Virus record (IMG/VR): IMGVR_UViG_3300008448_000045
Location: 12,824 to 76,823 of that record
Source of the DNA: a virus
DNA: 64,000 bases
Reading direction: 5' to 3' (one strand)
Shown in pieces: positions 47,475 to 60,710 of this stretch (its first letter is position 1; the number at the start of each line of letters is the position of its first letter). The notes beneath the pieces are model-generated. The model worked only from the letters and a program-made list of their open reading frames with translations. It had not been told where the DNA came from and ran no database searches. Made by a program: the position numbers and the translations under genes.

Positions 47475-48458
47475 TTATTCTCCTTGGTATTTGGCTTGGA
47501 ATGGTTCTGCATATTGCTGAACATTGTCTGCAACCTTTTTCATATCCCATGCATTACAGAACTTTAATAAACGAATACCAACTTGTGTTACATCCTTAGG
47601 AACACAGTCGACTTTAATAGTTTTACTAATAAGTTCTTTAATGTTTTCTGGTTGATATTTTAGGTCAATTAATCGACGATTGCGTTCGTAGTCATCTAAG
47701 ACGCGATGCTCTGCACCTTCGTGGTCAACCCATCTCTGCAGCATGAGATTATTCCACGAATAGCCTTTGCTTTTACGATCTTCGAACGCTTCAGTAAGAC
47801 CCACTTTGTTTTTTGTGCCTTTAACACGCACACCCGGATACGCCGAGAAGACATTATCACTGGTATCACCACGCATACACTTCTCAAACAATAACCATTC
47901 TGGGTGAACTTCTTTTGGTTCTTTTGTTTTTTTATCAACAACACGTTTACCCTTTGCATCAAAAATACCTTCGTGTGTAATATGATGTTCTTGTACACCA
48001 TTATACTGGCTAACATTTGGAGCAATTAATTGATAAAAGTCGCTGTCAGTTGAAATGATTACGTGATTGTCATCGGTATGACTTTGTATAAATCCAGCAA
48101 TTAAATCATCTGCTTCTAGTTGTGGATGATGTAAAACTGTACAGTTAGTTTTTTCAATGATAAAGTTTTTAAATTCATCAAATGCTTCCCAGAACAATTT
48201 ATCTTCTTCTTGTTCTTTAACAGTCATAGCTGCACGAGTTTCGCTGCGATTACGTTTATAAGGCTCGTAAAAGTCCTTACGCCACGAACGACCTTCGAGG
48301 CAGAACACTACATGTTTCCCCTCAAAGTCATTCCATGCTTTTTTAATACTATTAAAGGTAATATGAAAAGCCATTCCTAGCTTAATATCACTAGATCCTT
48401 GAACAACATGTCTAGCACGAAAAAAAGTATTGGCTGTATCAACCAAAATATATGTCAT
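47475..48458 (-). CDS. rnh: T4-type RNase H / 5'-3' flap exonuclease
   Basis: ILVDTAN, SWRKDFYEPYKRNR, EADDLIA, IISTDSDFYQL, GDTSDNV, YERNRRLIDL. Confidence 0.88.
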   Translation of the reverse strand: MTYILVDTANTFFRARHVVQGSSDIKLGMAFHITFNSIKKAWNDFEGKHVVFCLEGRSWRKDFYEPYKRNRSETRAAMTVKEQEEDKLFWEAFDEFKNFIIEKTNCTVLHHPQLEADDLIAGFIQSHTDDNHVIISTDSDFYQLIAPNVSQYNGVQEHHITHEGIFDAKGKRVVDKKTKEPKEVHPEWLLFEKCMRGDTSDNVFSAYPGVRVKGTKNKVGLTEAFEDRKSKGYSWNNLMLQRWVDHEGAEHRVLDDYERNRRLIDLKYQPENIKELISKTIKVDCVPKDVTQVGIRLLKFCNAWDMKKVADNVQQYAEPFQAKYQGE

Positions 48459-49033
48459 ATGTAATATTCCATGTCTGCAGCAAAAACAAATCTGTAATCA
48501 TCTGAGTCTATGATTCCAGGCCTATGCCATATTTTACTAGGATATATGACCCAAGTCAACTCCTTTGGTTTTAAGTAAAAAATATCTTTTTTGGTTGGCC
48601 AATCCATACAAAATTCTGTGCCAGCTGTATCTTGATTAGTAATTGACTTAGGAATATCCGCATACCAAACACCGCTAATTGAATTAGTTGTTCCGTTATT
48701 GTTACTCAAATGGTGTGTGTGCCAAAGGTCGTCTCTATCCTCAACTTCGTTTTGACTGGTCATAAAACACCAAGCCATCATGTTTTTAATTTTAACTTCA
48801 CCGCCTAAAAATTGAAAAACAGAATAAATGAAACTTTGTCTCATTTTTAAAAAAACTGCTTCGTTGCGAGCAAACAAGTTTTCTTGTGTTTGAAACTTTG
48901 GACTATTTTTAAAATAATTGCCAGAGTCAATAATTTGTTTAACTACAGAAGTTAATTGATTCATATCTTCTTGTTTAATTAAAGAAGACCAGTCGTATAA
49001 ATCAATATATTCATTCTTATCAACAACTACCAT
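48455..49033 (-). CDS. Putative 2OG-Fe(II) oxygenase / DSBH protein
   Basis: WHTHH..ISGVWY..GTEF..VIYPSKIWHRP..YRFVFA fits an HxH...H...R DSBH pattern. Confidence 0.55.
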   Translation of the reverse strand: MVVVDKNEYIDLYDWSSLIKQEDMNQLTSVVKQIIDSGNYFKNSPKFQTQENLFARNEAVFLKMRQSFIYSVFQFLGGEVKIKNMMAWCFMTSQNEVEDRDDLWHTHHLSNNNGTTNSISGVWYADIPKSITNQDTAGTEFCMDWPTKKDIFYLKPKELTWVIYPSKIWHRPGIIDSDDYRFVFAADMEYYI

Positions 49034-49461
49034 TAGCTAGCCTCTGATTTATCTTTAGTTATTTTGTTTATATTAATGAATCCTGCTCCACGACTAGCAT
49101 CCATACCTTCGTCGGTTAGCATATTTCTAACAATGTCTCGAAACCATCGATCTACAATTTCTTCTTCAGGATCTCCATCAAACCCGTACCCAGCTTTTTT
49201 TAAATCTAAAATAAAGTGTGCATTCCAATCAAGCTCAAAAAAACCGTTACGAGGATTATCCTTATTAACTTTAGTGTCTAATACTGAAACCCACGGTTCT
49301 CCTTTTTTAGTAGCACGTTCTTTTGGAGTTAGTTTTGCAAGCTCTTCTTTTTCTTGTGCTAGAACTGTTTCTGCTATTGCCTTATCTCTAGCGTCTTGAA
49401 GATTTTGTTTTTCTAATTCTATTTTATCAATGCCAAACAACTTTCTAATTATTTTTTTCAT
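49033..49461 (-). CDS. Hypothetical protein
   Basis: Likely start MKKIIRK with TAATG overlap to queE; PWVSV..NGFFELDWN..EEIVDRWF. Confidence 0.6.
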   Translation of the reverse strand: MKKIIRKLFGIDKIELEKQNLQDARDKAIAETVLAQEKEELAKLTPKERATKKGEPWVSVLDTKVNKDNPRNGFFELDWNAHFILDLKKAGYGFDGDPEEEIVDRWFRDIVRNMLTDEGMDASRGAGFININKITKDKSEAS

Positions 49462-50327
49462 TAAGTACCCCACTCATTTTTAAATAATGGCACTTGCAAG
49501 CGGTCACTATAACGTAAACCTGCATTCATTGCCATAATAGCCACTGCTCGATTGTTTAATGCGTAGACACTTTCTACTCCGCCGACTGGCATAAGATAAA
49601 CATGTCCAGCAAATCCAGCCGCACGATATTCTTCAGTTGCACGTTTAGCATCTTCGAAGTCTTGCTCTGTGGCAATAACAAATTTTAGATATGCTGTACC
49701 AACTTGTTCATATTCGCAAACAACTTCTGGAAGTATTGCTTCTTCCCATTTCTCACCACTACACGGAAGTTTGGCACTAACACTAAATGTTAATGCATTA
49801 TATCCTCTTGATTCAATACCCCAATTGAGTAAGTATTCTTTAAATTCCGGAGTAAGTTTTTGAGTACCGTTTGTTTCAAATGTAATTTCTTTTAATCCTG
49901 CCATTTTAGGATGATCTAGCAAATCTGGATAAGCACGTTGCCAACCTAGTAAAGGTTCTCCGCCAGTGATGACTAGATGTTCATCTTTCCATTCGTGGAA
50001 AGGAATAATTTCCATAATGCGATCTACAATAGCATCACTAGTAAGCATTGGACTTAGTTCTTTAAAGCTAGGATGCCAGCTAGCATAACTATCGCAACCT
50101 GTACTAACTAATGGAAGGTCTTCATATTTTTTAAATGGAGGCTCATCGTGAATGTCTTGCAATAGTGCAAGATTGTTTGCCTCTTCGCTTAGTTCACCTC
50201 TAGGCATACCAAAGCCGGCACATTTAAAATTACAACCGAATGTACGTAAGAAAACGGACGGTACACCCATGTAACGTCCTTCGCCTTGTACGCTATAAAA
50301 TAATTCTGCAATTTTTAATTTACTCAT
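49461..50327 (-). CDS. queE: 7-carboxy-7-deazaguanine synthase (radical SAM) with split Cys motif
   Basis: IAELFYSVQGEGRYMGVPSVFLRTFGCNFKC...GCDS, VITGGEPLL, FETNGT, SVSAKL, YLMP, YSDRLQ. Confidence 0.88.
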   Translation of the reverse strand: MSKLKIAELFYSVQGEGRYMGVPSVFLRTFGCNFKCAGFGMPRGELSEEANNLALLQDIHDEPPFKKYEDLPLVSTGCDSYASWHPSFKELSPMLTSDAIVDRIMEIIPFHEWKDEHLVITGGEPLLGWQRAYPDLLDHPKMAGLKEITFETNGTQKLTPEFKEYLLNWGIESRGYNALTFSVSAKLPCSGEKWEEAILPEVVCEYEQVGTAYLKFVIATEQDFEDAKRATEEYRAAGFAGHVYLMPVGGVESVYALNNRAVAIMAMNAGLRYSDRLQVPLFKNEWGT

Positions 50328-50550
50328 TTTCGTTTCTTTCTAAAAACATCGATACTTGATCTTCTGCATCAACATAGCTCTCCGCCCATACTGTAAACGT
50401 AGCAATACCATTCTTTGCACTTATATCAAACGGAACAACTCCGTTGGGTAACCAATTTTCTCCAACCTCTCTTTTAATTTCAAATTTTTGCAAAGCGGTG
50501 GTTTTCATTCTATATATTAGTTCATCGGCAAGTTGCTTTGCGGTTGTCAT
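50320..50550 (-). CDS. Hypothetical protein
   Basis: 76-aa ORF overlapping its neighbours. Confidence 0.55.
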   Translation of the reverse strand: MTTAKQLADELIYRMKTTALQKFEIKREVGENWLPNGVVPFDISAKNGIATFTVWAESYVDAEDQVSMFLERNENE

Positions 50551-50825
50551 ATGATTTCCTTTTCATAAATCTTTGACCATATTTTAAGCTTCTCTGATTT
50601 TTTTTGGCTTGCTTCTAATAGCTCTTGTTGGCTAAAAACTCCATGGTCGACTAACAGTTGTATCATTAACATAACATCACCGGCTTCTTGAGTCAAGTGT
50701 GCTCTCTGAGTACCGCCGTCTTTATAACTATTGTCTAAACCGAATCTACGAATTTTACTAGCAGATACAATTAATTCTCCACATTCTTCTTGCAGGATAT
50801 CTAAGATTTCTTGTATCTTGTTCAT
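50547..50825 (-). CDS. MazG-like NTP pyrophosphohydrolase
   Basis: LQEECGELIVSASKIRRFG...LTQEAGDV (EExxE...ExxD). Confidence 0.7.
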   Translation of the reverse strand: MNKIQEILDILQEECGELIVSASKIRRFGLDNSYKDGGTQRAHLTQEAGDVMLMIQLLVDHGVFSQQELLEASQKKSEKLKIWSKIYEKEII

Positions 50826-51211
50826 ACACAATCTCCTTGCTCTGCTAATTTAGATACTTCTTTATTGCTAGCTTTTACTTTTTTTTGCTTTCTAAATTCT
50901 GCTACATCATTAACAGCAGAGCGTAATGCTTGGGAATAATTAAGAGCTTGTTGTTCATTCATTATAGTACTAACTTCAGTTTCGATATAACCCTTAGTAA
51001 GCAACTTCCAAATTATTTGCCAACGATTTAACCCCCACCAAAGAGATTTCTGTTGTGTGTATATAGTTACAGTAACTCCAGCATCTTCAGCTTCTATCCA
51101 CACATTTTGCATATGGTCAGTACTTGTACATTCACACATAATTGAATAGTGTTTGGCATCGCCGTAATCTCTGTGTACTAAAATTCCTTGTGCTGGTGTT
51201 TGCGGAGTCAT
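50822..51211 (-). CDS. Hypothetical protein
   Basis: 129-aa ORF with a CEC..H motif; ATGA overlaps. Confidence 0.55.
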   Translation of the reverse strand: MTPQTPAQGILVHRDYGDAKHYSIMCECTSTDHMQNVWIEAEDAGVTVTIYTQQKSLWWGLNRWQIIWKLLTKGYIETEVSTIMNEQQALNYSQALRSAVNDVAEFRKQKKVKASNKEVSKLAEQGDCV

Positions 51212-51438
51212 TGTAAATTGGTCTCTATTTTAATAATTTTTACATCGTCTCTTGAATCTGAAATAGTATCAATCATCATTTCAAATTCATTAGGTTTGAG
51301 TATGGTTTTATAAATGCTAAGGGCTTGTGCTAACATAACGCCTGCAACAGAAAGCGGTCGATTACCATTTTCAATTAAATTTACTGTTAATTTCCAGTAA
51401 TTTTGATACGCTTCTTCTAATTTTAAATCATCGTTCAT
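51208..51438 (-). CDS. Hypothetical protein
   Basis: 76-aa ORF with ATGA overlap to folE. Confidence 0.55.
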   Translation of the reverse strand: MNDDLKLEEAYQNYWKLTVNLIENGNRPLSVAGVMLAQALSIYKTILKPNEFEMMIDTISDSRDDVKIIKIETNLQ

Positions 51439-52271
51439 CTTGGGGCAAACTCCTGTTGAAGTTTAATATTGTCAAAGAATTCTTTCTTTGTATTACCATC
51501 TTCTTTAAACGCACCTTTAAGCACCGTAGTTTGTGTCAGTGAGCTATGTGCCATAATACCGCGATTCTCACAGCAACCGTGTGTGGCTTGAATGTATACG
51601 CCTAGATCTTTGGCTCCTGTGGCCTTTTCGATTTCCCTAGCAATGTCATTGCAAAGTTCCTCCTGGAGAGTACCACGTCGGGCACACCACTGGGCAATGC
51701 GTGTGTACTTGCTAAGTCCGATAAGTTTCTCGGCAGCAATAAGACCAATATAAGCAACGCCAGTAACGGGTTGGTGATGATGGCTACACATACTGCGAAG
51801 CTCGCTACGGACAACCAACATACCTTCGTAACGGTCCTGCGAGTCATTTGGAAATGCTGTTGCGTCTGGTGCTTGTTCATATCTACCTGCCATTATTTCA
51901 TTAAAGTACATTTTAGCAAGGCGTCTTGCTGTACCTTTACTATTTGGATCATTTTCACGATCAATCAGCAAGCGATCAAGCACTAGTTCAAATGCTTCTG
52001 TTGCTTCGTTGATAAGTTTATCTTTATGTTCTTCTGTGACATAATCGCTAATATTGTCGCCTGCCCAGAAACGTTTATTGTCACGTTTCATTTTAAAGCG
52101 AATTGTATCTGCTAGATACGCTTCTTCGTATCCTTTGTCGCTCATCATTTCGCCGGCTTTAACGTATACCTTTTGGGGTAAAGGCACATACTGGTCTTCA
52201 AATGTATCCTTTACAAAAGTTTTATCAATTTCTGTATTGAGTGCAGGATCTGGTTTAAATTCGTTTGTCAA
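51435..52271 (-). CDS. folE: GTP cyclohydrolase I
   Basis: TARRLAKMY, SMCSHHHQP, LIGLSKYTRI, RRGTLQE, ATHGCCENRG, GAFKED..KKEF. TTG start with GGAG RBS. Confidence 0.93.
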   Translation of the reverse strand: MTNEFKPDPALNTEIDKTFVKDTFEDQYVPLPQKVYVKAGEMMSDKGYEEAYLADTIRFKMKRDNKRFWAGDNISDYVTEEHKDKLINEATEAFELVLDRLLIDRENDPNSKGTARRLAKMYFNEIMAGRYEQAPDATAFPNDSQDRYEGMLVVRSELRSMCSHHHQPVTGVAYIGLIAAEKLIGLSKYTRIAQWCARRGTLQEELCNDIAREIEKATGAKDLGVYIQATHGCCENRGIMAHSSLTQTTVLKGAFKEDGNTKKEFFDNIKLQQEFAPR

Positions 52272-52288
52272 TTATTATTCTCCGAGTT

Positions 52289-52341
52289 ATAGACGTGGAT
52301 GTCTATTGTTAAATTATACAGTCTTATTTAGGTTTTTGCAA
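52289..52341 (-). promoter_or_regulatory. folE promoter (TTGCAA-N17-TATAAT, embedded CTAAATA) and leader hairpin ATAGAC-ATCCAC-GTCTAT
   Basis: Read directly on the minus strand. The hairpin (52289-52306) lies just before the RBS. Confidence 0.55.
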
Positions 52342-52552
52342 AATTTTTAGAAAGTTTTTCACTCAAAAGTATACGACAAATATCAGCATCTTTTTTTGAT
52401 TTAAATTCAAACTCCATGTAATCTTCATACGGGTGATATATAAATCTATTACCAGGTAGTCCAAATACTTCTAAAACCGTAGCACAACATTCATTCCACC
52501 ACGGTACACTTTGATTATCCCAATCTATCCTAACTGTATGTTCAAAATTCAT
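52328..52552 (-). CDS. Hypothetical protein
   Basis: WWNECCATVLEVFGLPGNRF, small phage protein. Confidence 0.55.
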   Translation of the reverse strand: MNFEHTVRIDWDNQSVPWWNECCATVLEVFGLPGNRFIYHPYEDYMEFEFKSKKDADICRILLSEKLSKNFAKT

Positions 52553-52722
52553 TTGATAGATCTTTGTAATTCTTTTAACTCTTCTTCGAGGTATTCTTTG
52601 TACTCCGACAGCACTTCAAATCTACGACCTACATCGCCTGTAGATTGCAAGGCTTGTAAGTCTTTCATAACTTTTGCAATTTTTTCTCTAATTGCTTCAG
52701 GAGTTAAATTAGGTTCTTCCAC
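52549..52722 (-). CDS. Small coiled-coil hypothetical protein
   Basis: GTG start at 52722 with GGAGG RBS. Confidence 0.5.
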   Translation of the reverse strand: MEEPNLTPEAIREKIAKVMKDLQALQSTGDVGRRFEVLSEYKEYLEEELKELQRSIK

Positions 52723-52915
52723 GACCGCCTCCAAATCGTAATCCAGTCATACTACCAAACAGCAGTAAGAATGCCAGCCAAGTATCCCACGCATACGGAA
52801 TCTTTAAAACTGGAAATAAGGTATTTAAAGACCAAATTCCTAAAATAGGTCCTATAACTATTACTAGAACAATTGCTAGTAATGCAACAACTAATTTTAC
52901 TACAGATTTAATCAT
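52709..52915 (-). CDS. Small membrane protein (two hydrophobic segments)
   Basis: Start MIKSVV with ATGA overlap to the PRTase gene. Confidence 0.55.
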   Translation of the reverse strand: MIKSVVKLVVALLAIVLVIVIGPILGIWSLNTLFPVLKIPYAWDTWLAFLLLFGSMTGLRFGGGRGRT

Positions 52916-53460
52916 AACCAAAATTCCTCCCAAGGATAAACTAACCAACAGTCTTCCTCTGCTTTGTTAACGTTCCAAACACTGTAATCTGGATCTTTAA
53001 ATTCACTTGATTGATTGTGCGTTAGAACTGCAAATCGAACGTTATCACCCCATACTTGATTCCATTCAGTATCGTCCGGATAACAGCCGCTTGGCCAATC
53101 TTGTTTAATCCAATCGACAGTAGCGCCTGTATCGTTAATATCGTCAACTATAAGAATTTTCTTTTTAAGTTTCTCAACCCACTTGTTACCACCAAACTCT
53201 GCTCTACGATCAAACGGGACAGAACCTATTGCGTCTTCGGCCATGCCTAAATCACTTACACAGTCTCCGCCGTCACGCAAACTAACTTGTAATGGGCGCA
53301 TTGGAATGCCTGTGTATTGACTCAATAAAATAGCAGGAACAGCACCGCCTCTAGTAATGCCAACAATATAATCAGGTTTCCAATTGTCTGCTGACATTTG
53401 TCGAGCAATGTCTAAACACGCACCTTCTACTTGTTGCCAAGTGTAATAGACTTTTTTCAT
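52912..53460 (-). CDS. Type I phosphoribosyltransferase (xanthine/guanine PRTase-like)
   Basis: YYTWQQV, IVGITRGG, ILIVDDINDTGAT (PRPP-binding loop), WLVYPWE. Confidence 0.88.
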   Translation of the reverse strand: MKKVYYTWQQVEGACLDIARQMSADNWKPDYIVGITRGGAVPAILLSQYTGIPMRPLQVSLRDGGDCVSDLGMAEDAIGSVPFDRRAEFGGNKWVEKLKKKILIVDDINDTGATVDWIKQDWPSGCYPDDTEWNQVWGDNVRFAVLTHNQSSEFKDPDYSVWNVNKAEEDCWLVYPWEEFWL

Positions 53461-53693
53461 GAAGTTAAACCGTAGGCTAATGTTTGTAATTCTTCTTTAG
53501 TCATATGAAAATTATATGTGCTAGTTTGCCATACATCCCCATCTTCATCAAGGCTTTCTTGAATAAGGTCGATATTGAACAACCCTTTAGGATTAATAGA
53601 TTCCCATTTTTCTAAACGAATTCTAAATCCTTCGTTTTCTTTAATAACCATTTCTTTAGCAGTGTGCGCTACATCAGGGTGTAACTCTCTCAT
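53457..53693 (-). CDS. Hypothetical protein
   Basis: 78-aa ORF with ATGA overlaps. Confidence 0.55.
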   Translation of the reverse strand: MRELHPDVAHTAKEMVIKENEGFRIRLEKWESINPKGLFNIDLIQESLDEDGDVWQTSTYNFHMTKEELQTLAYGLTS

Positions 53694-54169
53694 TCCTCAT
53701 CTCCTTTAATTGATTCAAATGTTCTATATTTGCCCAATGCATTAATATAGTCGTCATACAACTTCTTTAGCTTTGGATGCTTTTTCTCTAGTTTAATATC
53801 TCTTTCAGGAATACACAAGACTTTTTCAATTGTGTTTAACCGTTCTTCTAAGTCTTGTCCGTTAAGTATCATCTTACCTTTGACTTCCAAACTAGCAGGA
53901 TCTTGTTTAACAATCATTACGTTGTCATTTGGATTGGCCCAACTTGTTCCGTTAGTAGCACTTGTTAAAAACTGGCCGGCAGTGGTATTGGTTGTATAAA
54001 CTTGCCCAGATCCCCCGCCGCCACCGCCAAAGATTGATACAGTAGATCCAACAGCTCCAATACTGTTAGTAGCTATAGTAACATTTCCTGCTGGCGGAGT
54101 AGGTCCGTATCCTGCTTGATAACCGCCGTTAGATATTGTGTGTTTTCCTGTTGCGTAAGTAGTTGTCAT
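53690..54169 (-). CDS. Hypothetical protein (Gly/Thr-rich N-terminus, helical C-terminus)
   Basis: LEERLNTIEKVL..KHPKLKKLYDDY. Confidence 0.55.
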   Translation of the reverse strand: MTTTYATGKHTISNGGYQAGYGPTPPAGNVTIATNSIGAVGSTVSIFGGGGGGSGQVYTTNTTAGQFLTSATNGTSWANPNDNVMIVKQDPASLEVKGKMILNGQDLEERLNTIEKVLCIPERDIKLEKKHPKLKKLYDDYINALGKYRTFESIKGDEE

Positions 54170-54614
54170 TGTGTATCCATTTATTCTTTACAAGAAATCC
54201 CCATTCTCGTTTTTGTGGCCCCGGCATAAACAAAGTCCAAGCTGTTACACCGTCCTTAAGCTCAATGCGATGATATGAATTAGAACTGCAAACACGGAAA
54301 TGACCTGGCCCACGCCATAAACGATGTTCACCAATCATAACCCCGTTAACAAATTGTGGAACCCATTCGTAGTATCCACCTTTTAATATTAATGTAGCAT
54401 ATGGCCACGGATGATCGTGGACATCATCCGGATCTCCTTTTAGGAACTTGTGTAAAAATACATTAAATGGAAATTTTTTTCTTTCTTTTAAGAAAAGATA
54501 ATATCTTTCCAAATAAGGCTCGTTATCTACACGGTCAAATATAATTCTCTTTCTGCCGGCTTTTTCAAGAAAACTAAGGAATTTATTTTTGAGTGTCTGG
54601 ATTATCATAATCAT
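54129..54614 (-). CDS. Cupin-fold protein
   Basis: LHKF..DVHDHPW..ILKGGYYE..SYHRIEL..WTLF (metal-binding HxH...E...H). Confidence 0.7.
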   Translation of the reverse strand: MIMIIQTLKNKFLSFLEKAGRKRIIFDRVDNEPYLERYYLFLKERKKFPFNVFLHKFLKGDPDDVHDHPWPYATLILKGGYYEWVPQFVNGVMIGEHRLWRGPGHFRVCSSNSYHRIELKDGVTAWTLFMPGPQKREWGFLVKNKWIHNDNYLRNRKTHNI

Positions 54615-54972
54615 CCTTTACAAGTTTGTAAGTAGTCTTAAATTTTTCAAAGGCAATTTTAAGACCTGGATAAATGTCACACATTTTTTGTATTCGATCC
54701 CATTCCGGAAAACTATTTGACCATTCTTCAGGCGGATTAAAAATAAAAGATTCTAAATCAGTTGCGCTAATTGGGCCAAGAGTTACTGTACTAATATTAC
54801 CTGGGGTAGTGTACATAGTACTGTTGTCAATATAAATTTGATTAGAACCACTACCTCCAGATATAGTTATAGTATCTGAAGATGCATAATCATAACCAAC
54901 ATCGATAGTTATATCACCGATATTATCATCGGATATTGTCAAGTATTCTGTTTGCTGAGAAGAATTGCTCAT
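54583..54972 (-). CDS. Hypothetical protein (Ser/Thr-rich N-terminus)
   Basis: C-terminal MCDIYPGLKIAFEKFKTTYKLV. Confidence 0.55.
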   Translation of the reverse strand: MSNSSQQTEYLTISDDNIGDITIDVGYDYASSDTITISGGSGSNQIYIDNSTMYTTPGNISTVTLGPISATDLESFIFNPPEEWSNSFPEWDRIQKMCDIYPGLKIAFEKFKTTYKLVKDDYDNPDTQK

Positions 54973-55999
54973 ATAACATCTCCTTTTGTTTGTTAAGCAT
55001 AGGGAGTCGAGTCTTGTAGTTATCCATGTGCTCTATAATTTTAGAGCATATATCTGGTCTATATACTGTGTAGGCATCAAAACTTTCAGTCCACTTGCTA
55101 GGATACTTAAAAGTATCAAAATACATCTCTGTATAACTAAGTCTGTCTGGCACCATAGGAATAGCATCTACTACAGCACCTTCATAACAACTAATACCTA
55201 ATGTTTCTTGTAAATTAGCACTGAACACTATCTTTGCTTCACCTAACAAGTTATGATATTCATTTTTTGTTAGCTGTTGATCCTGACACACAATAAATTC
55301 ATACTGTGGTAGATGTTCTTTTAAATCTCGAAAGATTTCAACTTGCTTTTCTGGAGCAATGCGATGCGGAAATAATATGAGATCTCTTTTAGGCATATTT
55401 TTATACGGATTTAAAATATCTTCCATATATTCCATAGGCCAACCTGTACGCACTATTTTATTGCTGTTAATATATGACAGTTTTGCTGTTTCATAATCTA
55501 TGCTTAGTAGATTATGAGCAAACATATCAATATGAAAGTCTGTGGCAAAGTAGTTGTGATCAAACGCATGGAAGAAACTCTTTTCAGCATTTCTAACCCA
55601 AGGTGTATCACCTACAAGACGTCCTAAGAAGTCTTGTGGATCATAACTACCTGCATGCCAAAGTCCGTGTGTAATAACTGGAATGCCCAGCAACTCGCTC
55701 ATGTACTTTAAGTTGATGATACCCGGGTGCCAAGCATCAGTAAAAATAAAGTGATCGCCGGGATGAACGGCTCCGTTGCAAAATAAGCGGCCCATCTGCT
55801 CCACTTGTGCTGACTTATAAACATTGGTACCGCCAAAATTAAGGAAAGCACCAGGAGTAGTGGCTGAAGGAATATCCGCAGGGCCAGATAAAATTTGAAC
55901 ATTGTGACCTGCCTTTTTTAATAATTTAGGTATATGGGTCTTCCATTGACCCGTATACCTTGTCTCAACTGATTCTAAATCAACTAAAAATATTGTCAT
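54926..55999 (-). CDS. GT-B (GT4-like) glycosyltransferase resembling DUF3524/GTDC1
   Basis: FPHRIAPEKQ, IVFSANLQETLGISCYE (E-x7-E motif), PMVPDRLSYTEMY. Confidence 0.78.
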   Translation of the reverse strand: MTIFLVDLESVETRYTGQWKTHIPKLLKKAGHNVQILSGPADIPSATTPGAFLNFGGTNVYKSAQVEQMGRLFCNGAVHPGDHFIFTDAWHPGIINLKYMSELLGIPVITHGLWHAGSYDPQDFLGRLVGDTPWVRNAEKSFFHAFDHNYFATDFHIDMFAHNLLSIDYETAKLSYINSNKIVRTGWPMEYMEDILNPYKNMPKRDLILFPHRIAPEKQVEIFRDLKEHLPQYEFIVCQDQQLTKNEYHNLLGEAKIVFSANLQETLGISCYEGAVVDAIPMVPDRLSYTEMYFDTFKYPSKWTESFDAYTVYRPDICSKIIEHMDNYKTRLPMLNKQKEMLYEQFFSANRILDNIR

Positions 56000-56259
56000 T
56001 GGTTATAGCGTGGCTTATTGCCTTGATAAGGCTTGCGCTCACCACTCCAAGGCTTTTTCTCACCGTTCCACGGTTTACGTGGGCGTGTACTCTTTTCATA
56101 GTTACGCCATTGCCAACTTTCTCTATTGTAAAGATGAGCTTCGTTAAATTCAATCAATTCCAAACGACAGTAGTTATGGAATGCTTCCAAGTCGTCAAAG
56201 ATTTTGACAATGTCGGGGCGAGTTTCGAGATAGTTGATATCGTTATAATTTTTAGCCAT
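55996..56259 (-). CDS. Hypothetical protein with basic repetitive tail
   Basis: KPWNGEKKPWSGERKPYQG repeats; ATGA overlap with the GT gene. Confidence 0.55.
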   Translation of the reverse strand: MAKNYNDINYLETRPDIVKIFDDLEAFHNYCRLELIEFNEAHLYNRESWQWRNYEKSTRPRKPWNGEKKPWSGERKPYQGNKPRYNQ

Positions 56260-56274
56260 TGCAGCCTCTTATAG

Positions 56275-56670
56275 TTAGTACTTAATAAATGAACCATTTT
56301 CTCCGTCTTCGGAGACCTCAATCCAAACCTCACGGTCTGGATACTTTGTGTGAATCTGAGCATATAAGTCATCGCTCATCATCTCACAACTCTTATAGTC
56401 TAGCGACAATACACCTTCGTTGCTAGAATACAATTTTTCCAACCATCGTTTGAATTGTATAAATTCCACATCTCTGTCATTGTGGGTAACACTAAGATAA
56501 ACCCTAAAATGAAAAATATGGCGATGGGGATTAGCCAAAAACGAGACATCATATTCATCTCCTGTTGCTAGATTGGGATCAGTTGCGGCTGCGGGATATT
56601 TGTGAATACCTTCTTTTCGAAAGGTAACCCAAATCATTTTATGTGGACGTATATCTTGTTTAATAATCAT
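56275..56670 (-). CDS. dpdL: QueD/PTPS-paralogous T-fold protein, DpdL type
   Basis: EGIH..FLANPHRHIF (LxxxHRHxF in place of CxxxHGH)..SCEM..IEVSEDGENG. Confidence 0.65.
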   Translation of the reverse strand: MIIKQDIRPHKMIWVTFRKEGIHKYPAAATDPNLATGDEYDVSFLANPHRHIFHFRVYLSVTHNDRDVEFIQFKRWLEKLYSSNEGVLSLDYKSCEMMSDDLYAQIHTKYPDREVWIEVSEDGENGSFIKY

Positions 56671-57185
56671 TTGATAATTTCGTCGTTTTTATATTGTGAC
56701 CAGTCTGTGAACTTACTACGATCCATTAGTGTATGTAGACTGTGGGACCATACACCGGGATTAGTTGCTTTAAAATCTTTGTCATCAATTTTAAGCATTG
56801 TATTATAATTCCATAATTTAATATAAGGAATTGGAATTCTAATTTGCGGGATAAAGTTATCGTATTCGCAATACCCACTCTCGTGAAATTCTTCAACTTG
56901 ACTTAAGGGAATATCTAAAGAACAAAGATAACCTTTTTCTAAAAAGAAGAAAATCATTTCCTCCCACTGTTTATGGTTATCATATCCTTGCGGATTAAAA
57001 CTATGATTAGCACCAAAGAAAATATGATTAATTTTTTGATTAACTAATGCACCTTCAATTGCGTCAATCGGTTGAATATCAACTACAAATAATGTATTCA
57101 TACCATATGCCGGCGTGTGTTCTACTTCTTTGCCAAAGAAGAATACAACACTACTCGATTGCCCATCTGTATAATCACGATTCAT
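56667..57185 (-). CDS. Hypothetical protein in the deazaguanine locus
   Basis: EVEHTPAYG, HIFFGANHSF, KIDDKDFKATNPGVW; overlaps both neighbours. Confidence 0.6.
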   Translation of the reverse strand: MNRDYTDGQSSSVVFFFGKEVEHTPAYGMNTLFVVDIQPIDAIEGALVNQKINHIFFGANHSFNPQGYDNHKQWEEMIFFFLEKGYLCSLDIPLSQVEEFHESGYCEYDNFIPQIRIPIPYIKLWNYNTMLKIDDKDFKATNPGVWSHSLHTLMDRSKFTDWSQYKNDEIIK

Positions 57186-57426
57186 TTTTATTTTGCTCGT
57201 ATTGTTTGAATAAACGGGTTACTTCTTCCATGCGTTCTGCAAATACATGCGGGCTAGCTTCGGCTGCTTGTTGCATGTCCCAACTATTAGGGTAGTGACG
57301 TAGGCAACCGCTAGCTCGTTGCCTAATGATTTTAGGAACTTTGGGTGTAACAGTACGGTCACATAAATCCTTTAGTAGTTGTTCTGCCATTTTAACAGCA
57401 CGATATCGTTCATCTGGTAAGGTCAT
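57175..57426 (-). CDS. Hypothetical protein
   Basis: MTLPDERYRAV..LRHYP; ATGA overlap with the TGT-like gene. Confidence 0.6.
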   Translation of the reverse strand: MTLPDERYRAVKMAEQLLKDLCDRTVTPKVPKIIRQRASGCLRHYPNSWDMQQAAEASPHVFAERMEEVTRLFKQYEQNKNES

Positions 57427-58973
57427 TCTTTTACCTGTAATTCTAGCTGGTCTAATTTTGATTCTTCTTCGTCAGTAAATTCGTCACTATGCTCTGATTG
57501 TAGTGTATTTGAATCTGTTTCGTCAAATAGATTGGCAAACATAGTGCTAGCATTGACAGTCTTTTTACCAGTAGCTCCCCTAGTGCCAATGATACTCATC
57601 CAAAAACGACTATATTCTTCAACAACAGCATCGGCAGTACCTCTATCACTAGTTGCAAAAATAGCTTCTACAATATCTTTAAAGAATAGTCTATCAAATT
57701 TCTCTTGTACCAACATAGCTGGAACATTGCCAGCATCATATTTTCTATTAGCTTCTTGTACAGCATTAATATGATGCCAAACATTGTGCCCCATTTGAAT
57801 GGCATAGCTAAAACTATCCCATGAAGTTTTACCTTCTTTGCCTATTTTATTTAGGTCGCCGGGCTTATAGATACAAATATCTTTAATTTGACACTGATCA
57901 ATTATTGGACTTGATTCAAAGTTTTTAAAGATGCCATCTTGTATTACCGCGTCTTTGAAGAGACGAGTATCCGCGGCATATTTTTTGTCATCTGCACTAG
58001 CTTGCATTCTGTAGACCCACTTAGTTCTGTCTTCTGTTTCTGTTTGGATGTAGATTTGTCCGTTTGCTGTTGCCAAAAACGGTGAGGCGCAGTCAAAAGA
58101 TATGGTAAAGTTTTCATTATGATATTTCCTTACAGCACGTTGAATGTCTGTGAGCAAAGTTGCCCACTCCAATTTTGATGTTCCTAAGAAGTGCATCCAG
58201 TCTTGTTTGCCTTTTTCTAGTAGTCCATCAAATCTTAGTGCCACTAACCGCTTTAGCGTTAAGTGTACATCGCACATATTCTGTCCGCCCATAGCCCAAC
58301 CGTTAAAAGCACGGTCACCATAGACTTTAGGATCGCAATACTTCTTCATTCTATCATACCAATCATCTGCATCAGTATGATTTTCACCTTGAAGAACATT
58401 TAAGAATTTACAATTGCCATTACGATTGTTTACGAACCAATCATTGTTAATATATGTTCCTTGCACTGCTTCTGCGTATGTAGTAATACCTGTGGCTTTT
58501 TGTCCAGCAGGACTACGAGCTACCCAAGCAGGAATATCTAAACACATACCATAGTCCATAAGTGCATCCATCCACTTAAGAACTTGTTCACGTTTCTTTT
58601 GTGCTTTAGGACAGTTAGGATTTTTCCAGTCACCTTCCCACACACCTTTACCAATTTGGAAACCACCTGAATCACCAAGTACCCAACTAGTACTACGATT
58701 GCGATTACGGAACATGTCTTCGCTTTCGTCTTGTTTATTGAGATCTAAATTAGCGTGACCTGCAGAGTATAGACAGTGGTCATAGTAAAATAACCCTTTG
58801 TCCGGGTCTAAATAATTTAGGCTTTCTATCCCATTAGTAAAGCTAGCGGGGATACGGGCAGGGTCAACATAGTTGCCATACCGTTGTTTGCCTATAAATG
58901 TAGCATAAAATCCTGACGTTGCTGGCAGGAAATATGCGTAGTCATTTTGAGCTATTGTTAAGTTCTTATTCAA
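57423..58973 (-). CDS. TGT/DpdA-like guanine transglycosylase (7-deazaguanine insertase)
   Basis: GDSGGFQ, MCLDIP, NVLQG, GWAMGG, MHFLG, ISFDCASP and terminal HN, all in TGT order. TTG start. Confidence 0.8.
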   Translation of the reverse strand: MNKNLTIAQNDYAYFLPATSGFYATFIGKQRYGNYVDPARIPASFTNGIESLNYLDPDKGLFYYDHCLYSAGHANLDLNKQDESEDMFRNRNRSTSWVLGDSGGFQIGKGVWEGDWKNPNCPKAQKKREQVLKWMDALMDYGMCLDIPAWVARSPAGQKATGITTYAEAVQGTYINNDWFVNNRNGNCKFLNVLQGENHTDADDWYDRMKKYCDPKVYGDRAFNGWAMGGQNMCDVHLTLKRLVALRFDGLLEKGKQDWMHFLGTSKLEWATLLTDIQRAVRKYHNENFTISFDCASPFLATANGQIYIQTETEDRTKWVYRMQASADDKKYAADTRLFKDAVIQDGIFKNFESSPIIDQCQIKDICIYKPGDLNKIGKEGKTSWDSFSYAIQMGHNVWHHINAVQEANRKYDAGNVPAMLVQEKFDRLFFKDIVEAIFATSDRGTADAVVEEYSRFWMSIIGTRGATGKKTVNASTMFANLFDETDSNTLQSEHSDEFTDEEESKLDQLELQVKE

Positions 58974-59145
58974 TTCTACCCCACTTTATTTTTAACCATA
59001 GTCGTTCAAAAATATAATGTACTATAGTTAATATAATATGTATGATTATGGCATCTCCAAGACCAGTCCATATAGCAGTAATAAGCAAAGCCGCAATTCT
59101 ATAACTTACGGTCCTTGCTATAGTTCTTTTATGTGTTTCTAACAT
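58966..59145 (-). CDS. DUF2061-like small membrane protein (59 aa), not in the ORF track
   Basis: MLETHKRTIARTVSYRIAALLITAIW..HYIFERLWLKIKWG; TAATG coupling to the clamp gene. Confidence 0.7.
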   Translation of the reverse strand: MLETHKRTIARTVSYRIAALLITAIWTGLGDAIIIHIILTIVHYIFERLWLKIKWGRIE

Positions 59146-59876
59146 TACTTGCTTTGCGCTGGGAGAATATAGTTGTATTCAGCCATACCGCTATCCACAG
59201 TGATCATCATAGCACCTGCATCACTAATTTTAACAGTCTTATCTCCAGCAAGTGCTAGAATACTCATAACTTGAATAACAGGCCATGCCCAGGTAGATTT
59301 TAATTTGCCAACAACATTAGCTTCAAAAACAAATTCTCCTGCATGGGTACTAGCATCTCCAAAACTAAAAACAAGATTATTGTTTTCAGTCTTTACTTGG
59401 AATACAGTTTCCTCACTGTGGGCGTTTGCTTGGAATTTTAATCTTTGAATAGAAGACACGTTAGGTTCAAAATCAACACTCCATGTTGCACCTTTAAACT
59501 TAACAGATTTTAATTTCTCATTAATAATCTCAGTGTTCATAAATCTGTAATCATTTTGAAAATCACCAGCGGCGTTTTTAAAATGTAATCCAGTTGGAAT
59601 TACTTCATTATTTCTTTCTGCGGTTGTAACACCAATTGATGCACCTTCTTTATATTCAGGACACTTTAAATGAATGTCTAGCTTGTTTAAATTAGGCATG
59701 CCAAAAATACCTTCAAATTCTGATACAGGTGTTTTAGTCTTTGCATTAATGATTACTGATCGATCCTCAGCCATACCTTCAATTTGAGTCTCTTCTTCAG
59801 AAGACGAAATCTTAATTAAAGGAATAAATCCAAGTGCATGAGTGTGTGCTACTAGGTCTTGTAAAATATCTTTCAT
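59145..59876 (-). CDS. DNA polymerase sliding clamp (gp45-like)
   Basis: About 243 aa two-domain alpha/beta pattern (FGMPNLNKL..DYRFM..YNYILPA) near polB. Start MKDIL with GGAG RBS. Confidence 0.65.
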   Translation of the reverse strand: MKDILQDLVAHTHALGFIPLIKISSSEEETQIEGMAEDRSVIINAKTKTPVSEFEGIFGMPNLNKLDIHLKCPEYKEGASIGVTTAERNNEVIPTGLHFKNAAGDFQNDYRFMNTEIINEKLKSVKFKGATWSVDFEPNVSSIQRLKFQANAHSEETVFQVKTENNNLVFSFGDASTHAGEFVFEANVVGKLKSTWAWPVIQVMSILALAGDKTVKISDAGAMMITVDSGMAEYNYILPAQSK

Positions 59877-59896
59877 GTTTTTCTCCATTGTTAATG

Positions 59897-59925
59897 ATTA
59901 TATTTAGGTTTTTGTTAAAGGTCAA
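59897..59925 (-). promoter_or_regulatory. Promoter TTGACC-N17-TATAAT with overlapping CTAAATA
   Basis: Upstream of the clamp/TGT operon. Shares the 14-mer CAAAAACCTAAATA with the folE promoter. Confidence 0.65.
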
Positions 59926-60709
59926 GAGTCTTTCTTACCGTTTTATTATATTCAATTGCTGATTTAAGCACATCTAACGATACACCTAATTGATCTGAAT
60001 ATTTTATTAATGCTTTAGTATCTTTTGGAAAACAATGCCCCCCAAAGCCACGATCTTCATCAATCCCGGGGACTAATGTATGACTAGATCCAATTCTATG
60101 ATCGTGGACTAAAATTTGTCTTACAACATTAAAATCTGCCCCATTGGCATTGCAAAGATCAAACATATGATTAAAGAAAGCTACTTTGGTTGCTAAAAAC
60201 GAATTAGCTGCGTATTTTATTGTAGATGCTTCGGTTAGTGTGCATTTAAAAAATATTTTAGATAATGGCAACGCTTCAGAGAGTATAGTTTCCCAGAAAC
60301 TGTCTGGATCGTCACCTCCTAAAATTGTAAACCTTTGGTTAGTAAAGTCAAACTCTGCTGATCTAGCACGTAAGAATTCCGGACTATAACATATAGGGTT
60401 ATCTGGAAAATCTGTTACTAACTTTTCAAGATTGTCTGGAGTTACTGTAGATTTGATTAAAATAGGTGTGTTTGGCGAAGTCTTTGAAATAACATCTCTA
60501 ATCTGACTGTCATCACACCCGCCGTCTTCTAAACTTGGTGTTCCTACACAAATAACAACCCCGTCTGCTAATGGATAGTCCTCCATTTTAGAACTATTAT
60601 AGAGTGGATCTATAATTGAACATTGATTAAATTCTCTCAAGGCTTTAAATACAGCTTTACCAACAAAGCCGTAGCCTGCAACTAGTATTTCTTTTTTTTC
60701 TTGTTTCAT
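59915..60709 (-). CDS. ugd: UDP-glucose/GDP-mannose dehydrogenase family protein (C-terminal domain absent)
   Basis: GYGFVG, CVGTP, IKSTV, SPEFLR, KYAANSFLATKVAFFN, GFGGHCFPKD. Confidence 0.85.
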   Translation of the reverse strand: MKQEKKEILVAGYGFVGKAVFKALREFNQCSIIDPLYNSSKMEDYPLADGVVICVGTPSLEDGGCDDSQIRDVISKTSPNTPILIKSTVTPDNLEKLVTDFPDNPICYSPEFLRARSAEFDFTNQRFTILGGDDPDSFWETILSEALPLSKIFFKCTLTEASTIKYAANSFLATKVAFFNHMFDLCNANGADFNVVRQILVHDHRIGSSHTLVPGIDEDRGFGGHCFPKDTKALIKYSDQLGVSLDVLKSAIEYNKTVRKTLDL

Positions 60710-60710
60710 A

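Follow-up and report, generated by a model that had tools for sequence, protein, structure and literature searches.

Does a phage locus that encodes enzymes of 7-deazaguanine synthesis next to a glycosyltransferase (GT) place a sugar-bearing guanine derivative in viral DNA? We addressed this question for a window of 64,000 nt, positions 12,824 to 76,823 of virus record IMGVR_UViG_3300008448_000045, in which a sequence-only reading had noted a deazaguanine locus without queC, coupled to a GT, and had proposed a new hypermodified guanine. The 76.8-kb record is a fragment (genome 21% complete according to CheckV) of an uncultured jumbo (giant) phage of about 350 kb. Our analysis supports that interpretation in part: a DpdL-type deazaguanine module and its linkage to the GT stand, while the supposed absence of queD is not supported and the roles assigned to several accessory genes are weakened.

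Gene layout and the predicted route to CDG

In the open reading frame listing of the window, minus-strand genes run unbroken from 47475 to 63380, with 4-nt overlaps of the ATGA type at ten junctions and a 1-nt overlap at another. As had been claimed, all genes named earlier are co-oriented and densely packed on this strand, from the 5'-3' exonuclease to the clamp and PolB genes. The flanking genes and those for the first pathway step are:

47475..48458, minus: 5'-3' exonuclease / RNase H, flank (Pfam 5_3_exonuc_N, E 2e-20)
49033..49473, minus: 146-aa protein p13349, between QueE and the exonuclease (phrog_13349, E 3e-14)
49461..50327, minus: QueE-like radical-SAM CDG synthase (phrog_2076, E 2e-48; NCBIfam QueE models, E 1e-15, below their cut-offs)
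51435..52271, minus: FolE, GTP cyclohydrolase I, extended at the N terminus by about 90 aa (Pfam E 2e-39, residues 100-269)
59145..59888, minus: sliding-clamp-like protein, flank (phrog_12062, E 7e-37; the Phosso homologue is annotated as sliding clamp)
60711..63380, minus: family B DNA polymerase, flank (Pfam DNA_pol_B, E 3e-39)

Presence was counted in close relatives with enough flank, 47 for the core genes and 24 for FolE, QueE and the accessory genes. FolE was found in 24 of 24 and QueE in 23 of 24; the Cys spacing of the QueE-like protein reads as unusual (CX3C, 41 residues, then C). The order QueE-p13349-RNase H is preserved in most loci, also in Paride and Phosso, and the 146-aa protein is perhaps part of the replication module. 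By homology, FolE and QueE, together with a QueD encoded elsewhere in the genome, would make 7-carboxy-7-deazaguanine (CDG) from GTP.

The apparent lack of a canonical queD proved to be a window artefact, as a QueD with a CxxxHGH motif is encoded elsewhere in Paride and in a close relative (G001, outside the cluster; CRHLHGH). As for the reported absence of queC, neither Pfam QueC nor Pfam PTPS matched anywhere in the 76.8-kb record, but at 21% completeness this carries little weight for the whole genome, in whose unseen part QueC could sit, and one distant relative, G008, has a QueC-like ORF (34 bits). Searches for QueC found none in Paride and Phosso, none in the complete G007 and none in five fragments from close relatives; among complete relatives, its absence holds for Paride, Phosso and a contig of 480 kb.

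A core of DpdL, u172, a TGT-like protein and a glycosyltransferase

The genes between FolE and the clamp that concern decarboxylation, insertion and glycosylation, with the small ORFs among them, are:

54926..55999, minus: 357-aa GT-B glycosyltransferase, GT4-like, retaining type, seen by fold
55996..56259, minus: 87-aa ORF between DpdL and GT (same position in 57/80 close and 40/73 distant loci)
56275..56670, minus: 131-aa DpdL-family protein, QueD-like, proposed CDG decarboxylase (LxxxHRHxF motif; phrog_17812, E 4e-33)
56667..57185, minus: 172-aa conserved protein (u172), core member of the module
57175..57426, minus: 83-aa ORF overlapping both neighbours (62/80 close-relative but only 2/73 distant loci), with no match in family searches
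57423..58973, minus: 516-aa DpdA-like transglycosylase with a TGT fold, from a divergent subfamily, seen only by fold and profile-profile comparison

What had been described as a QueD paralogue is a homologue of DpdL, a family defined in PMC10516641: it carries LxxxHRHxF, matches phiST CGPG_00067 (tblastn, E 3e-9), and is 54%, 55% and 66% identical to its counterparts in ACP17, PA5oct and Phosso, respectively. Homologues of u172 share strongly conserved motifs, and the one in ACP17 lies between FolE and DpdA (E 2e-20); u172 had no match in Pfam, PHROGs, a PDB profile search or the ESM Atlas.

The 516-aa protein had no sequence match in Pfam, NCBIfam or PDB, and Pfam TGT matched nothing in the 76.8-kb record of the 21%-complete genome. 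The TGT likeness noted earlier was nevertheless confirmed by three comparisons: (i) Foldseek on the AF2 model (pLDDT 89.6) gave Z. mobilis TGT as best matches (E 1.5e-7); (ii) VIA-align Z scores were 18.3 for ArcTGT, 18.2 for QTRT2, 17.4 for TGT and 16.3 for DpdA 7ui4, against 12.1 or less for generic TIM barrels; and (iii) hhalign against the DpdA of ACP17, X1 and BCSR5 gave 98% (E 2.5e-13), the motifs DSGGFQ, LD-IP, QG, HxLG and SxD lining up. D101, S102, G104, D146, N192, G225, H261, G264 and D294 are invariant in the family; its alignment contains no invariant Cys, and the C-terminal tail is acidic and disordered. The protein thus has a TGT fold and is remotely homologous to phage DpdA. 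A second TGT is absent from Paride, Phosso and G007, whose genomes are complete, and from PA5oct, where the homologue adjoins the GT. From the fold, the conserved catalytic Asp residues and elimination, we infer that this protein performs the insertion.

For the GT, the AF2 model (pLDDT 90.8) matched glycogen synthase and BshA (Foldseek, E about 1e-10), with VIA-align Z scores of 25.1 for sucrose-phosphate synthase, 23.6 for BshA and 18.1 for T4 alpha-GT. Residues E265 and E273 are invariant, giving the EX7E spacing, and Pfam Glycos_transf_1 was weakly detected in three of eight homologues. A likeness to GTDC1/QTMAN was not detected: a domain search that included homologues gave no DUF3524 signal.

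Each of the four core genes (TGT-like, u172, DpdL and GT) occurred in all 47 close relatives. Across 36 more distant loci the gene order is kept, and the GT accompanies TGT-like and DpdL genes in 35 of them, as it does in PA5oct-like phages and Phosso. It adjoins DpdL in at least seven phage lineages and lies inside the clusters of ACP17, X1, BCSR5 and BUCT-ZZ01, whose DpdA is of another type. About 20 bacterial chromosomal loci have the GT beside the 516-aa type; in these islands a YhhQ-like transporter is paired with module genes, and one in Magnetospirillum, with the order GT-DpdL-TGT-like-QueD, also encodes a nuclease-like protein and an integrase. Across many phages and some bacteria, the GT is genuinely linked to deazaguanine genes.

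The remaining genes of the run are:

48455..49033, minus: 192-aa 2OG-Fe(II)-oxygenase-like protein (weak; Pfam 24.3 bits against a cut-off of 27)
50547..50831, minus: 94-aa MazG-like NTP pyrophosphohydrolase, a rare accessory (phrog_4856, E 1e-21)
52912..53460, minus: 182-aa purine (6-oxopurine type) phosphoribosyltransferase, PRTase (Pfam Pribosyltran; PDB 1vdm, E 8e-13)
54129..54614, minus: 161-aa cupin, a common accessory (phrog_4786 'cysteine dioxygenase', E 4e-39)
59915..60721, minus: 268-aa nucleotide-sugar-dehydrogenase-like (Ugd-like) protein (GxGxxG and catalytic GGHCFPKD)

The PRTase, whose best PDB matches are 1vdm (P. horikoshii purine PRTase), HGPRT and XGPRT, occurs in 19 of 24 close relatives and most distant loci; it is absent from ACP17, X1 and the bacterial islands, and the BUCT-ZZ01 cluster also encodes an XGPRT. 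Four genes count as extras of particular lineages: those for the cupin, the short Ugd-like protein, MazG and the 2OG oxygenase. Of 24 close relatives, 19 carry the cupin, as do 20 of 73 distant loci. MazG and the oxygenase, listed earlier as genes of the locus, proved to be rare accessories (4/24 and 1/24 close relatives; 5/73 distant loci for the oxygenase), the oxygenase lying outside the conserved system. The Ugd-like gene is indeed present, also in 20 of 24 close relatives, but its role as UDP-sugar supplier is doubtful because the C-terminal UDP-binding domain is missing: its alignment with Ugd structures of 450 aa spans roughly their residues 75-300, and this short form (roughly 270-280 aa) is conserved, directly following the GT in loci L108 and L122.

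A proposed pathway and its alternatives

The reading we favour, with confidence about evenly divided, is a replication-linked DNA-modification module that would insert CDG-derived 7-deazaguanine (DG) in DNA and then probably glycosylate it to a hypermodified G. DpdL would turn CDG into DG, a published but unproven prediction, and the 516-aa protein would exchange guanine in phage DNA for this base after replication. The GT, probably with u172, would then modify the base, with attachment of a sugar to the inserted deazaguanine as the likeliest form, and the product would block restriction. Displaced guanine would most simply be salvaged by the PRTase to GMP/GTP, the pathway's own substrate. DNA of PA5oct, a cultured relative, is restriction-resistant at G-containing sites, from which its authors infer a modified G in GA/GG (PMC12191111); this fits site-specific post-replicative insertion. 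Because the GT is inseparable from DpdL and the transglycosylase, we read it as acting on the base and infer that the base carries the sugar. The linkage predicts a sugar-bearing purine in DNA and, consistent with the novelty claimed earlier, we found no paper describing a glycosylated deazaguanine there.

It is possible, though unlikely, that the end product is plain 2'-deoxy-7-deazaguanosine (dDG; or dCDG) and that the GT spares the base, glycosylating a protein or some other site in the DNA instead, or serving DpdL and DpdA as a structural component or chaperone. phiST makes dDG with 100% replacement using FolE, QueD, QueE, DpdL and DpdA3 and no GT (PMC10516641), so dDG formation as such does not require a GT. 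An obvious hydroxyl acceptor is missing in DG, and a sugar would need a nitrogen or a further-modified C7 group; among the 24 close relatives, moreover, the core includes no gene of NDP-sugar synthesis. It also speaks against our reading that the nearest structural neighbours of the GT are mostly small-molecule enzymes (BshA, MshA, tetrahydrobiopterin glucosyltransferase, LmbT), T4 alpha-GT ranking lower. However, an unrelated target would hardly explain the GT-DpdL adjacency in so many phage lineages, with two DpdA types and in bacterial islands, and the invariant EX7E residues make a mere scaffold role unlikely.

The small-molecule neighbours, including the tetrahydrobiopterin enzyme, would also suit a GT whose substrate is the deazapurine before its insertion, still free, or else a pterin intermediate; we regard this as rather improbable. 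The large TGT-like enzyme, with 516 aa and extra C-terminal elements, would then insert a glycosylated base, or a soluble glycoside would be the product; HuiG of huimycin synthesis similarly transfers from UDP-GlcNAc to a nitrogen of a preQ0-derived free base (bioRxiv 10.64898/2026.04.15.718813). The PolB-clamp operon position and the PA5oct restriction data, however, point to DNA as the final target. Classical TGTs use conserved Asp residues to recognize the 2-amino/N1 face of the base; as these residues are retained here, a base with a bulky N2 substituent seems an unlikely substrate for insertion.

Less plausible again is a pre-replicative, tubercidin-like route in which the PRTase couples CDG with PRPP, the nucleotide is decarboxylated, reduced and phosphorylated to a dNTP that PolB incorporates, and MazG clears dGTP. 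TubE, a PRTase specific for CDG and PRPP in a QueC-less pathway, is a precedent (PMC6112128), and the module, with a purine PRTase in most loci and in BUCT-ZZ01, adjoins PolB. Yet a DpdA is found in each of the deazaguanine phages studied to date (PMC10516641), all relatives carry a TGT-like enzyme whose catalytic residues are intact, the distribution of the PRTase and the rarity of MazG do not fit, and the PA5oct modification appears motif-specific rather than global. That the target is tRNA, with a glycosylated deazaguanosine built into phage or host tRNA (e.g., against anticodon nucleases), is very improbable: although the TGT superfamily consists mostly of tRNA enzymes, the GT4 enzyme QTMAN glycosylates queuosine and the islands pair a YhhQ-like transporter with the module, PA5oct DNA itself is resistant and its genome has no other TGT, the nearest relatives by profile are phage DpdA DNA enzymes, the Magnetospirillum nuclease-like gene is as expected of a DNA modification-restriction pair, and the GT has no DUF3524 signal.

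Comparison with known deazaguanine and glycosylation systems

The locus shares with phiST a QueC-less CDG pathway, an LxxxHRHxF DpdL, a TGT-superfamily inserter, a clustered MazG-like gene and adjacent replication genes. phiST differs in lacking GT, u172 and PRTase; its DpdA3 (259 aa) is only marginally similar to the 516-aa protein (hhalign 73%), and its dDG was measured, whereas the product here is predicted from the genes. In the Acidovorax phage ACP17 (QueD-FolE-u172-like-DpdA-GT-DpdL-QueE), GT (35%), DpdL (54%) and the 172-aa protein (31%) form one operon with FolE and QueE, but this 156-kb T4-like phage has a classical 424-aa DpdA. The annotation lists its GT and u172-like genes as hypothetical. 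When DpdL and DpdA of phiST and ACP17 were expressed alone in E. coli, dDG did not form, and the authors suspected that further enzymes were lacking (PMC10516641), a result that we count in favour of our reading; the word part 'glycosyl' has no match in that text, whose ACP17 test names only dpdL and dpdA.

The Pseudomonas phages PA5oct and Paride (Wroclawvirus) share the order PolB-clamp-TGT-like-GT-DpdL...QueE-p13349-exonuclease, with 33% identity for the TGT-like protein, 44% for GT and 55% for DpdL, QueD elsewhere and no QueC. They differ in host and genome, in lacking a detectable u172 homologue and in having a weak PRTase-like gene.

Bacterial Dpd (DpdA/DpdB/DpdC plus dpdD-K restriction genes) likewise uses a TGT-fold DNA transglycosylase, but it inserts preQ0 and makes dADG, requires QueC and DpdB/DpdC, and has neither GT nor DpdL. 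By analogy, the bacterial GT-DpdL-TGT-like islands with a nuclease-like gene look like a modification-restriction pair.

HuiG and QTMAN/GTDC1 show that a deazapurine can serve as glycosyl acceptor. HuiG differs in acting on free O-methylated preQ0 in a secondary-metabolite cluster; QTMAN, which glycosylates a queuosine hydroxyl in eukaryotic tRNA, requires the queuosine cyclopentenediol, which this phage pathway cannot make. The T4 alpha- and beta-glucosyltransferases are, like the GT described here, GT-B enzymes, and they glycosylate a modified phage-DNA base after replication; they are not its nearest structural neighbours, however, and their substrate is 5-hydroxymethylcytosine, for which this phage locus encodes no hydroxymethylase.

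Gene layout of the locus and the pathway genes outside it

The source contig, of which the window represents bases 12824–76823, is 76.8 kb long and was estimated by CheckV to be 21% complete, which makes it a fragment of a jumbo phage genome of approximately 350 kb; genes reported as absent from it are absent from this 76.8-kb fragment only. The ORF listing places all genes between 47475 and 63380 on the minus strand, with ten junctions at which neighboring genes overlap by 4 nt and one at which they overlap by 1 nt. Family searches confirmed FolE, a QueE-like radical-SAM enzyme, a purine-type PRTase, a cupin, a short MazG-like protein, a nucleotide-sugar-dehydrogenase-like (Ugd-like) protein, PolB and a 5'-3' exonuclease, FolE and QueE having matches in Pfam, PHROG and NCBIfam. 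Thus, the co-oriented, coupled run of deazaguanine genes described in the sequence-only reading is upheld, while its 2OG-oxygenase-like gene is weak, scoring 24.3 bits in Pfam, under the cut-off. Three central genes, encoding the TGT-like protein, DpdL and the glycosyltransferase (GT), match nothing in Pfam or NCBIfam, and none of 50,697 phage records matched the locus by megablast.

Genes of the locus referred to by position:
49033–49473, minus strand, 146-aa protein p13349 (phrog_13349)
49461–50327, minus strand, QueE-like protein
51435–52271, minus strand, FolE
54926–55999, minus strand, GT, 357 aa
56275–56670, minus strand, DpdL, 131 aa
56667–57185, minus strand, u172, 172 aa
57423–58973, minus strand, TGT-like protein, 516 aa
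59915–60721, minus strand, Ugd-like protein

In FolE, the Pfam domain is preceded by some 90 additional aa at the N-terminus. The QueE-like protein matches QueE models, but below their curated cut-offs, and has a CX3C motif followed by 41 residues before the third cysteine, as compared with the CX3CX2C arrangement.

No QueD with the CxxxHGH motif was found in the 76.8-kb, 21% complete record. However, PTPS/QueD genes lie at a distance from the locus in seven of ten large relatives as well as in the Pseudomonas phage Paride and in phage Phosso, and the close relative G001 has the QueD motif CRHLHGH; the ‘missing’ QueD is therefore probably an artefact of the window, in which the earlier reading saw no canonical queD. 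The PTPS-family genes of the relatives (L083–L087, L170–L174) comprise at least three motif types, namely CxxxHGH, a THSHC type, and some without HxH in the ORF that was picked, and Paride has two PTPS genes approximately 2 kb apart.

The sequence-only reading saw neither queC nor queF. QueC was detected neither in the 76.8-kb record nor in five close-relative fragments (33–55% complete), nor in the complete genomes of Paride, Phosso and the 480-kb contig G007, and no QueF match exceeded the cut-off in Paride, Phosso, G007, G001 or G002. A classical TGT was likewise not found in these five. However, the distant, GT-bearing relative G008 (80% complete) encodes a 196-aa QueC-like PP-loop ORF (L167:1105–1695, on the IMG/VR contig behind L135; Pfam QueC, 34 bits), from which its deazaguanine locus is separated by about 100 kb, which indicates that the wider clade is not uniformly QueC-less.

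The TGT-like protein, DpdL and the glycosyltransferase

Searches with the sequence of the 516-aa protein found nothing in Pfam, including its TGT model, in NCBIfam, or in the PDB by phmmer or profile search, and the protein was identified solely by its fold and by profile–profile comparison. The confident AlphaFold model (pLDDT 89.6) has a Zymomonas TGT as its top Foldseek match (E 1.5e-7), and the VIA-align Z scores of ArcTGT (18.3), QTRT2 (18.2), bacterial TGT (17.4) and DpdA, the DNA preQ0 insertase (16.3), are clearly above those of generic TIM barrels (12.1 or lower). In hhalign, its profile matches the classical DpdA of ACP17 (Acidovorax), X1 (Xanthomonas) and BCSR5 with 98% probability (E 2.5e-13), the DSGGFQ, LD-IP, QG, HxLG and SxD motifs being in register. 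An alignment of 46 diverse homologues revealed nine invariant residues (D101, S102, G104, D146, N192, G225, H261, G264, D294) and no invariant cysteine. These features are those of a TGT-fold, DpdA-family transglycosylase with catalytic aspartates (D101, D146, D294). The match to DpdA3 of the Cellulophaga phage phiST is marginal (73%, E 3e-5, 82 columns) and does not place the protein in the DpdA3 subfamily, and no DUF6610 (DpdA4) signal was found in it. We read the 516-aa protein as a distinct DpdA-like subfamily, a very large family in which clustering at 90% leaves at least 7,961 proteins and clustering at 50% identity leaves 986 clusters. At the C-terminus (residues ~463–516), an acidic stretch modelled with low confidence leads into a short helix; as the gene also lies directly after the clamp gene, this end of the protein might tether it to the clamp or the replisome.

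The 131-aa protein carries LxxxHRHxF instead of CxxxHGH, the motif expected of DpdL, and in tblastn it matches its phiST homologue CGPG_00067 (E 3e-9), which has been named DpdL (Nucleic Acids Res 2023, PMC10516641). Homologues are also present in ACP17, PA5oct-like phages, Phosso, X1, BCSR5 and BUCT-ZZ01. Its comparison with phage QueD by hhalign was weakly positive (12–16%), and the QueD likeness of DpdL itself is a published HHpred result (PMC10516641). In Rhizobium phage RHph_I1_18 (L175:7411–8235), the gene for a DpdL with 57% identity precedes that for a macro-domain (Appr-1-p processing) protein, and the annotation of the surrounding genes includes no GT.

The predicted structure of the 357-aa protein (pLDDT 90.8) is a full-length GT-B fold of two Rossmann domains, most similar to sucrose-phosphate synthase (VIA-align Z 25.1) and BshA (23.6), with a best Foldseek E of about 1e-10. 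In its C-terminal domain, both glutamates of the EX7E motif (E265 and E273) are invariant among 21 homologues. Neither Pfam Glycos_transf_1 nor Glyco_transf_4 matches the protein itself; a weak Glycos_transf_1 signal was obtained for three of eight homologues (best E 2.5e-4). The suggested likeness to QTMAN/GTDC1 found no support: DUF3524 gave no signal in eight family members at Pfam E values of up to 10, and the structural matches include no QTMAN/GTDC1 entry, which by itself is not an exclusion. No IMG/VR relatives of the Paride GT were found, and the search with the ACP17 GT found only itself.

For u172, encoded between DpdL and the TGT-like protein, no match was obtained in Pfam, PHROGs, the ESM Atlas or a profile search of the PDB, and hhalign did not link it to the Phosso ‘glycosylase’, Paride_0119, phiST CGPG_00066 or the small neighboring proteins of X1, BCSR5 and BUCT-ZZ01. 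A homologue is also present in ACP17.

Distribution of the module in phages and bacteria

Loci of close relatives were anchored on the TGT-like gene, with a required downstream flank of at least 3 kb (n = 47) or at least 9 kb (n = 24). Genes for u172, DpdL and GT were each present in 47 of 47 loci of the first set. Within the second set, FolE (24/24) and QueE (23/24) are nearly constant, the Ugd-like protein (20/24), the cupin (19/24) and the PRTase (19/24) are frequent, and MazG (4/24) and the 2OG oxygenase (1/24) are so rare that we rejected these two as members of the pathway. The order PolB–clamp–TGT-like–u172–DpdL–(87 aa)–GT–FolE…PRT…QueE–p13349–exonuclease is retained in 36 more distant IMG/VR loci. 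Furthermore, GT is found within the deazaguanine clusters of ACP17, X1, BCSR5 and BUCT-ZZ01, all of which have a classical DpdA, and adjoins the TGT-like gene in the Pseudomonas phages PA5oct and Paride. The coupling of GT to deazaguanine genes, as originally proposed, is therefore well established. In the X1 cluster, a PAPS-reductase-family PP-loop protein (L091:6332–6865) directly follows FolE and is a candidate for a QueC-like enzyme that amidates or adenylates.

The Ugd-like protein retains the NAD-binding GxGxxG motif and the catalytic cysteine in GGxCxxKD, as determined from its translation and an alignment to 3gg2. However, it stops at the equivalent of residue ~300 of 450, and the next ORF is the clamp; Pfam matches only the N-terminal and central domains, the C-terminal UDP-sugar-binding domain being absent. 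Since it lacks this domain, a role in supplying UDP-glucuronate is unsupported and was rejected. One might speculate that it oxidizes an attached sugar instead of a UDP-sugar. The short form is conserved in relatives, where its gene sometimes directly follows GT.

A scan of prokaryotes, with one genome per species, identified 33 loci with a GT homologue. Eight of these resemble phage contigs inside metagenome bins, while approximately 20 are chromosomal, with GT adjoining a TGT-like gene of the same 516-aa type. Magnetospirillum isolates, among them Magnetospirillum aberrantis SpK (L198:6324–12053), have overlapping GT, DpdL and TGT-like genes followed by PTPS/QueD; on the upstream side, a CoiA-nuclease-like gene accompanies the genes for a MASE1 histidine kinase and its response regulator, with an integrase close by. 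In the islands of Pelagibacterium mangrovi (L188) and Shimia ponticola (L196), the GT/TGT-like pair lies beside a YhhQ-like (Vut_1) transporter that matches below threshold, and a resolvase is also present. These loci are consistent with a DNA-modification core that is portable and perhaps coupled to restriction, and may represent a new modification–restriction island.

Predicted pathway and comparison with known systems

By homology, FolE, QueD and QueE would convert GTP to 7-carboxy-7-deazaguanine (CDG), which DpdL, according to the published prediction, would convert to 7-deazaguanine (DG). The 516-aa enzyme would then insert the base into DNA after replication, as suggested by its fold, its conserved residues, elimination of other candidates and data from PA5oct. 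The linkage of the genes suggests that a sugar would subsequently be added by GT, perhaps together with u172, and the PRTase would most simply salvage the released guanine. PA5oct DNA blocks five restriction enzymes, which its authors read as modified G in GA/GG, and they pointed out QueE and PTPS genes in this phage (PMC12191111). This restriction pattern is indirect evidence for a 7-deazaguanine derivative in virion DNA. Expression of phiST or ACP17 DpdL together with DpdA in E. coli yielded no 7-deazaguanine deoxynucleoside (dDG), and missing enzymes were suspected by the authors (PMC10516641); the module described here may explain this result.

Two other uses of a deazapurine have precedents. 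The tubercidin pathway, which also lacks QueC, employs TubE, a PRTase specific for CDG (PMC6112128), and the glycosyltransferase HuiG acts on a nitrogen atom of a deazapurine in its free form (bioRxiv 10.64898/2026.04.15.718813). A tubercidin-type pathway would require a CDG-specific PRTase, a UbiD decarboxylase and a GMP-reductase-like enzyme; the locus has a purine PRTase, and UbiD and GMP-reductase had no match among the window ORFs. A pterin glycoside, made by FolE, PTPS and a GT resembling BH4-glucosyltransferase, was rejected, as the core includes QueE, DpdL and a TGT-fold enzyme and GT matches BGluT no better than other GT4 enzymes.

We consider it possible, if on balance somewhat doubtful, that this very widespread jumbo-phage clade, together with PA5oct, Paride, ACP17 and Phosso, has a glycosylated 7-deazaguanine in its DNA. 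No other purine in DNA is known to bear a sugar, so this would be the first, and it would be the product of four genes that form a portable core, encoding a new DpdA subfamily, DpdL, a GT4 enzyme and u172. In bacteria, this core would provide the modification side of a new island resembling a restriction system. To our knowledge, the known sugar-bearing DNA bases are all pyrimidines and the known DNA deazaguanines are all unglycosylated. Consistent with the initial reading, our literature search yielded no description of a deazaguanine glycosylated in DNA; if present, such a base would constitute a DNA hypermodification of a new class. As judged from the TGT-like homologue counts, the module is very common, and since some of the phages that carry it are in culture, among them PA5oct and Paride, which are relevant to therapy and known to have a modified G, the prediction is testable at once. 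Moreover, a DpdA-like subfamily invisible to Pfam is now defined, and the bacterial loci provide a pointer to a possible new modification–restriction island.

The DNA of phiST is fully dDG (PMC10516641). Its cluster contains DpdL, DpdA3 and MazG but lacks GT, and its DpdA3 has 259 aa as compared with the 516 aa of the TGT-like protein, which is closer to ACP17-type DpdA. We conclude that the module is real, occurs very widely and represents a variant of the known DpdL-type system that includes a GT whose role is unexplained and testable.
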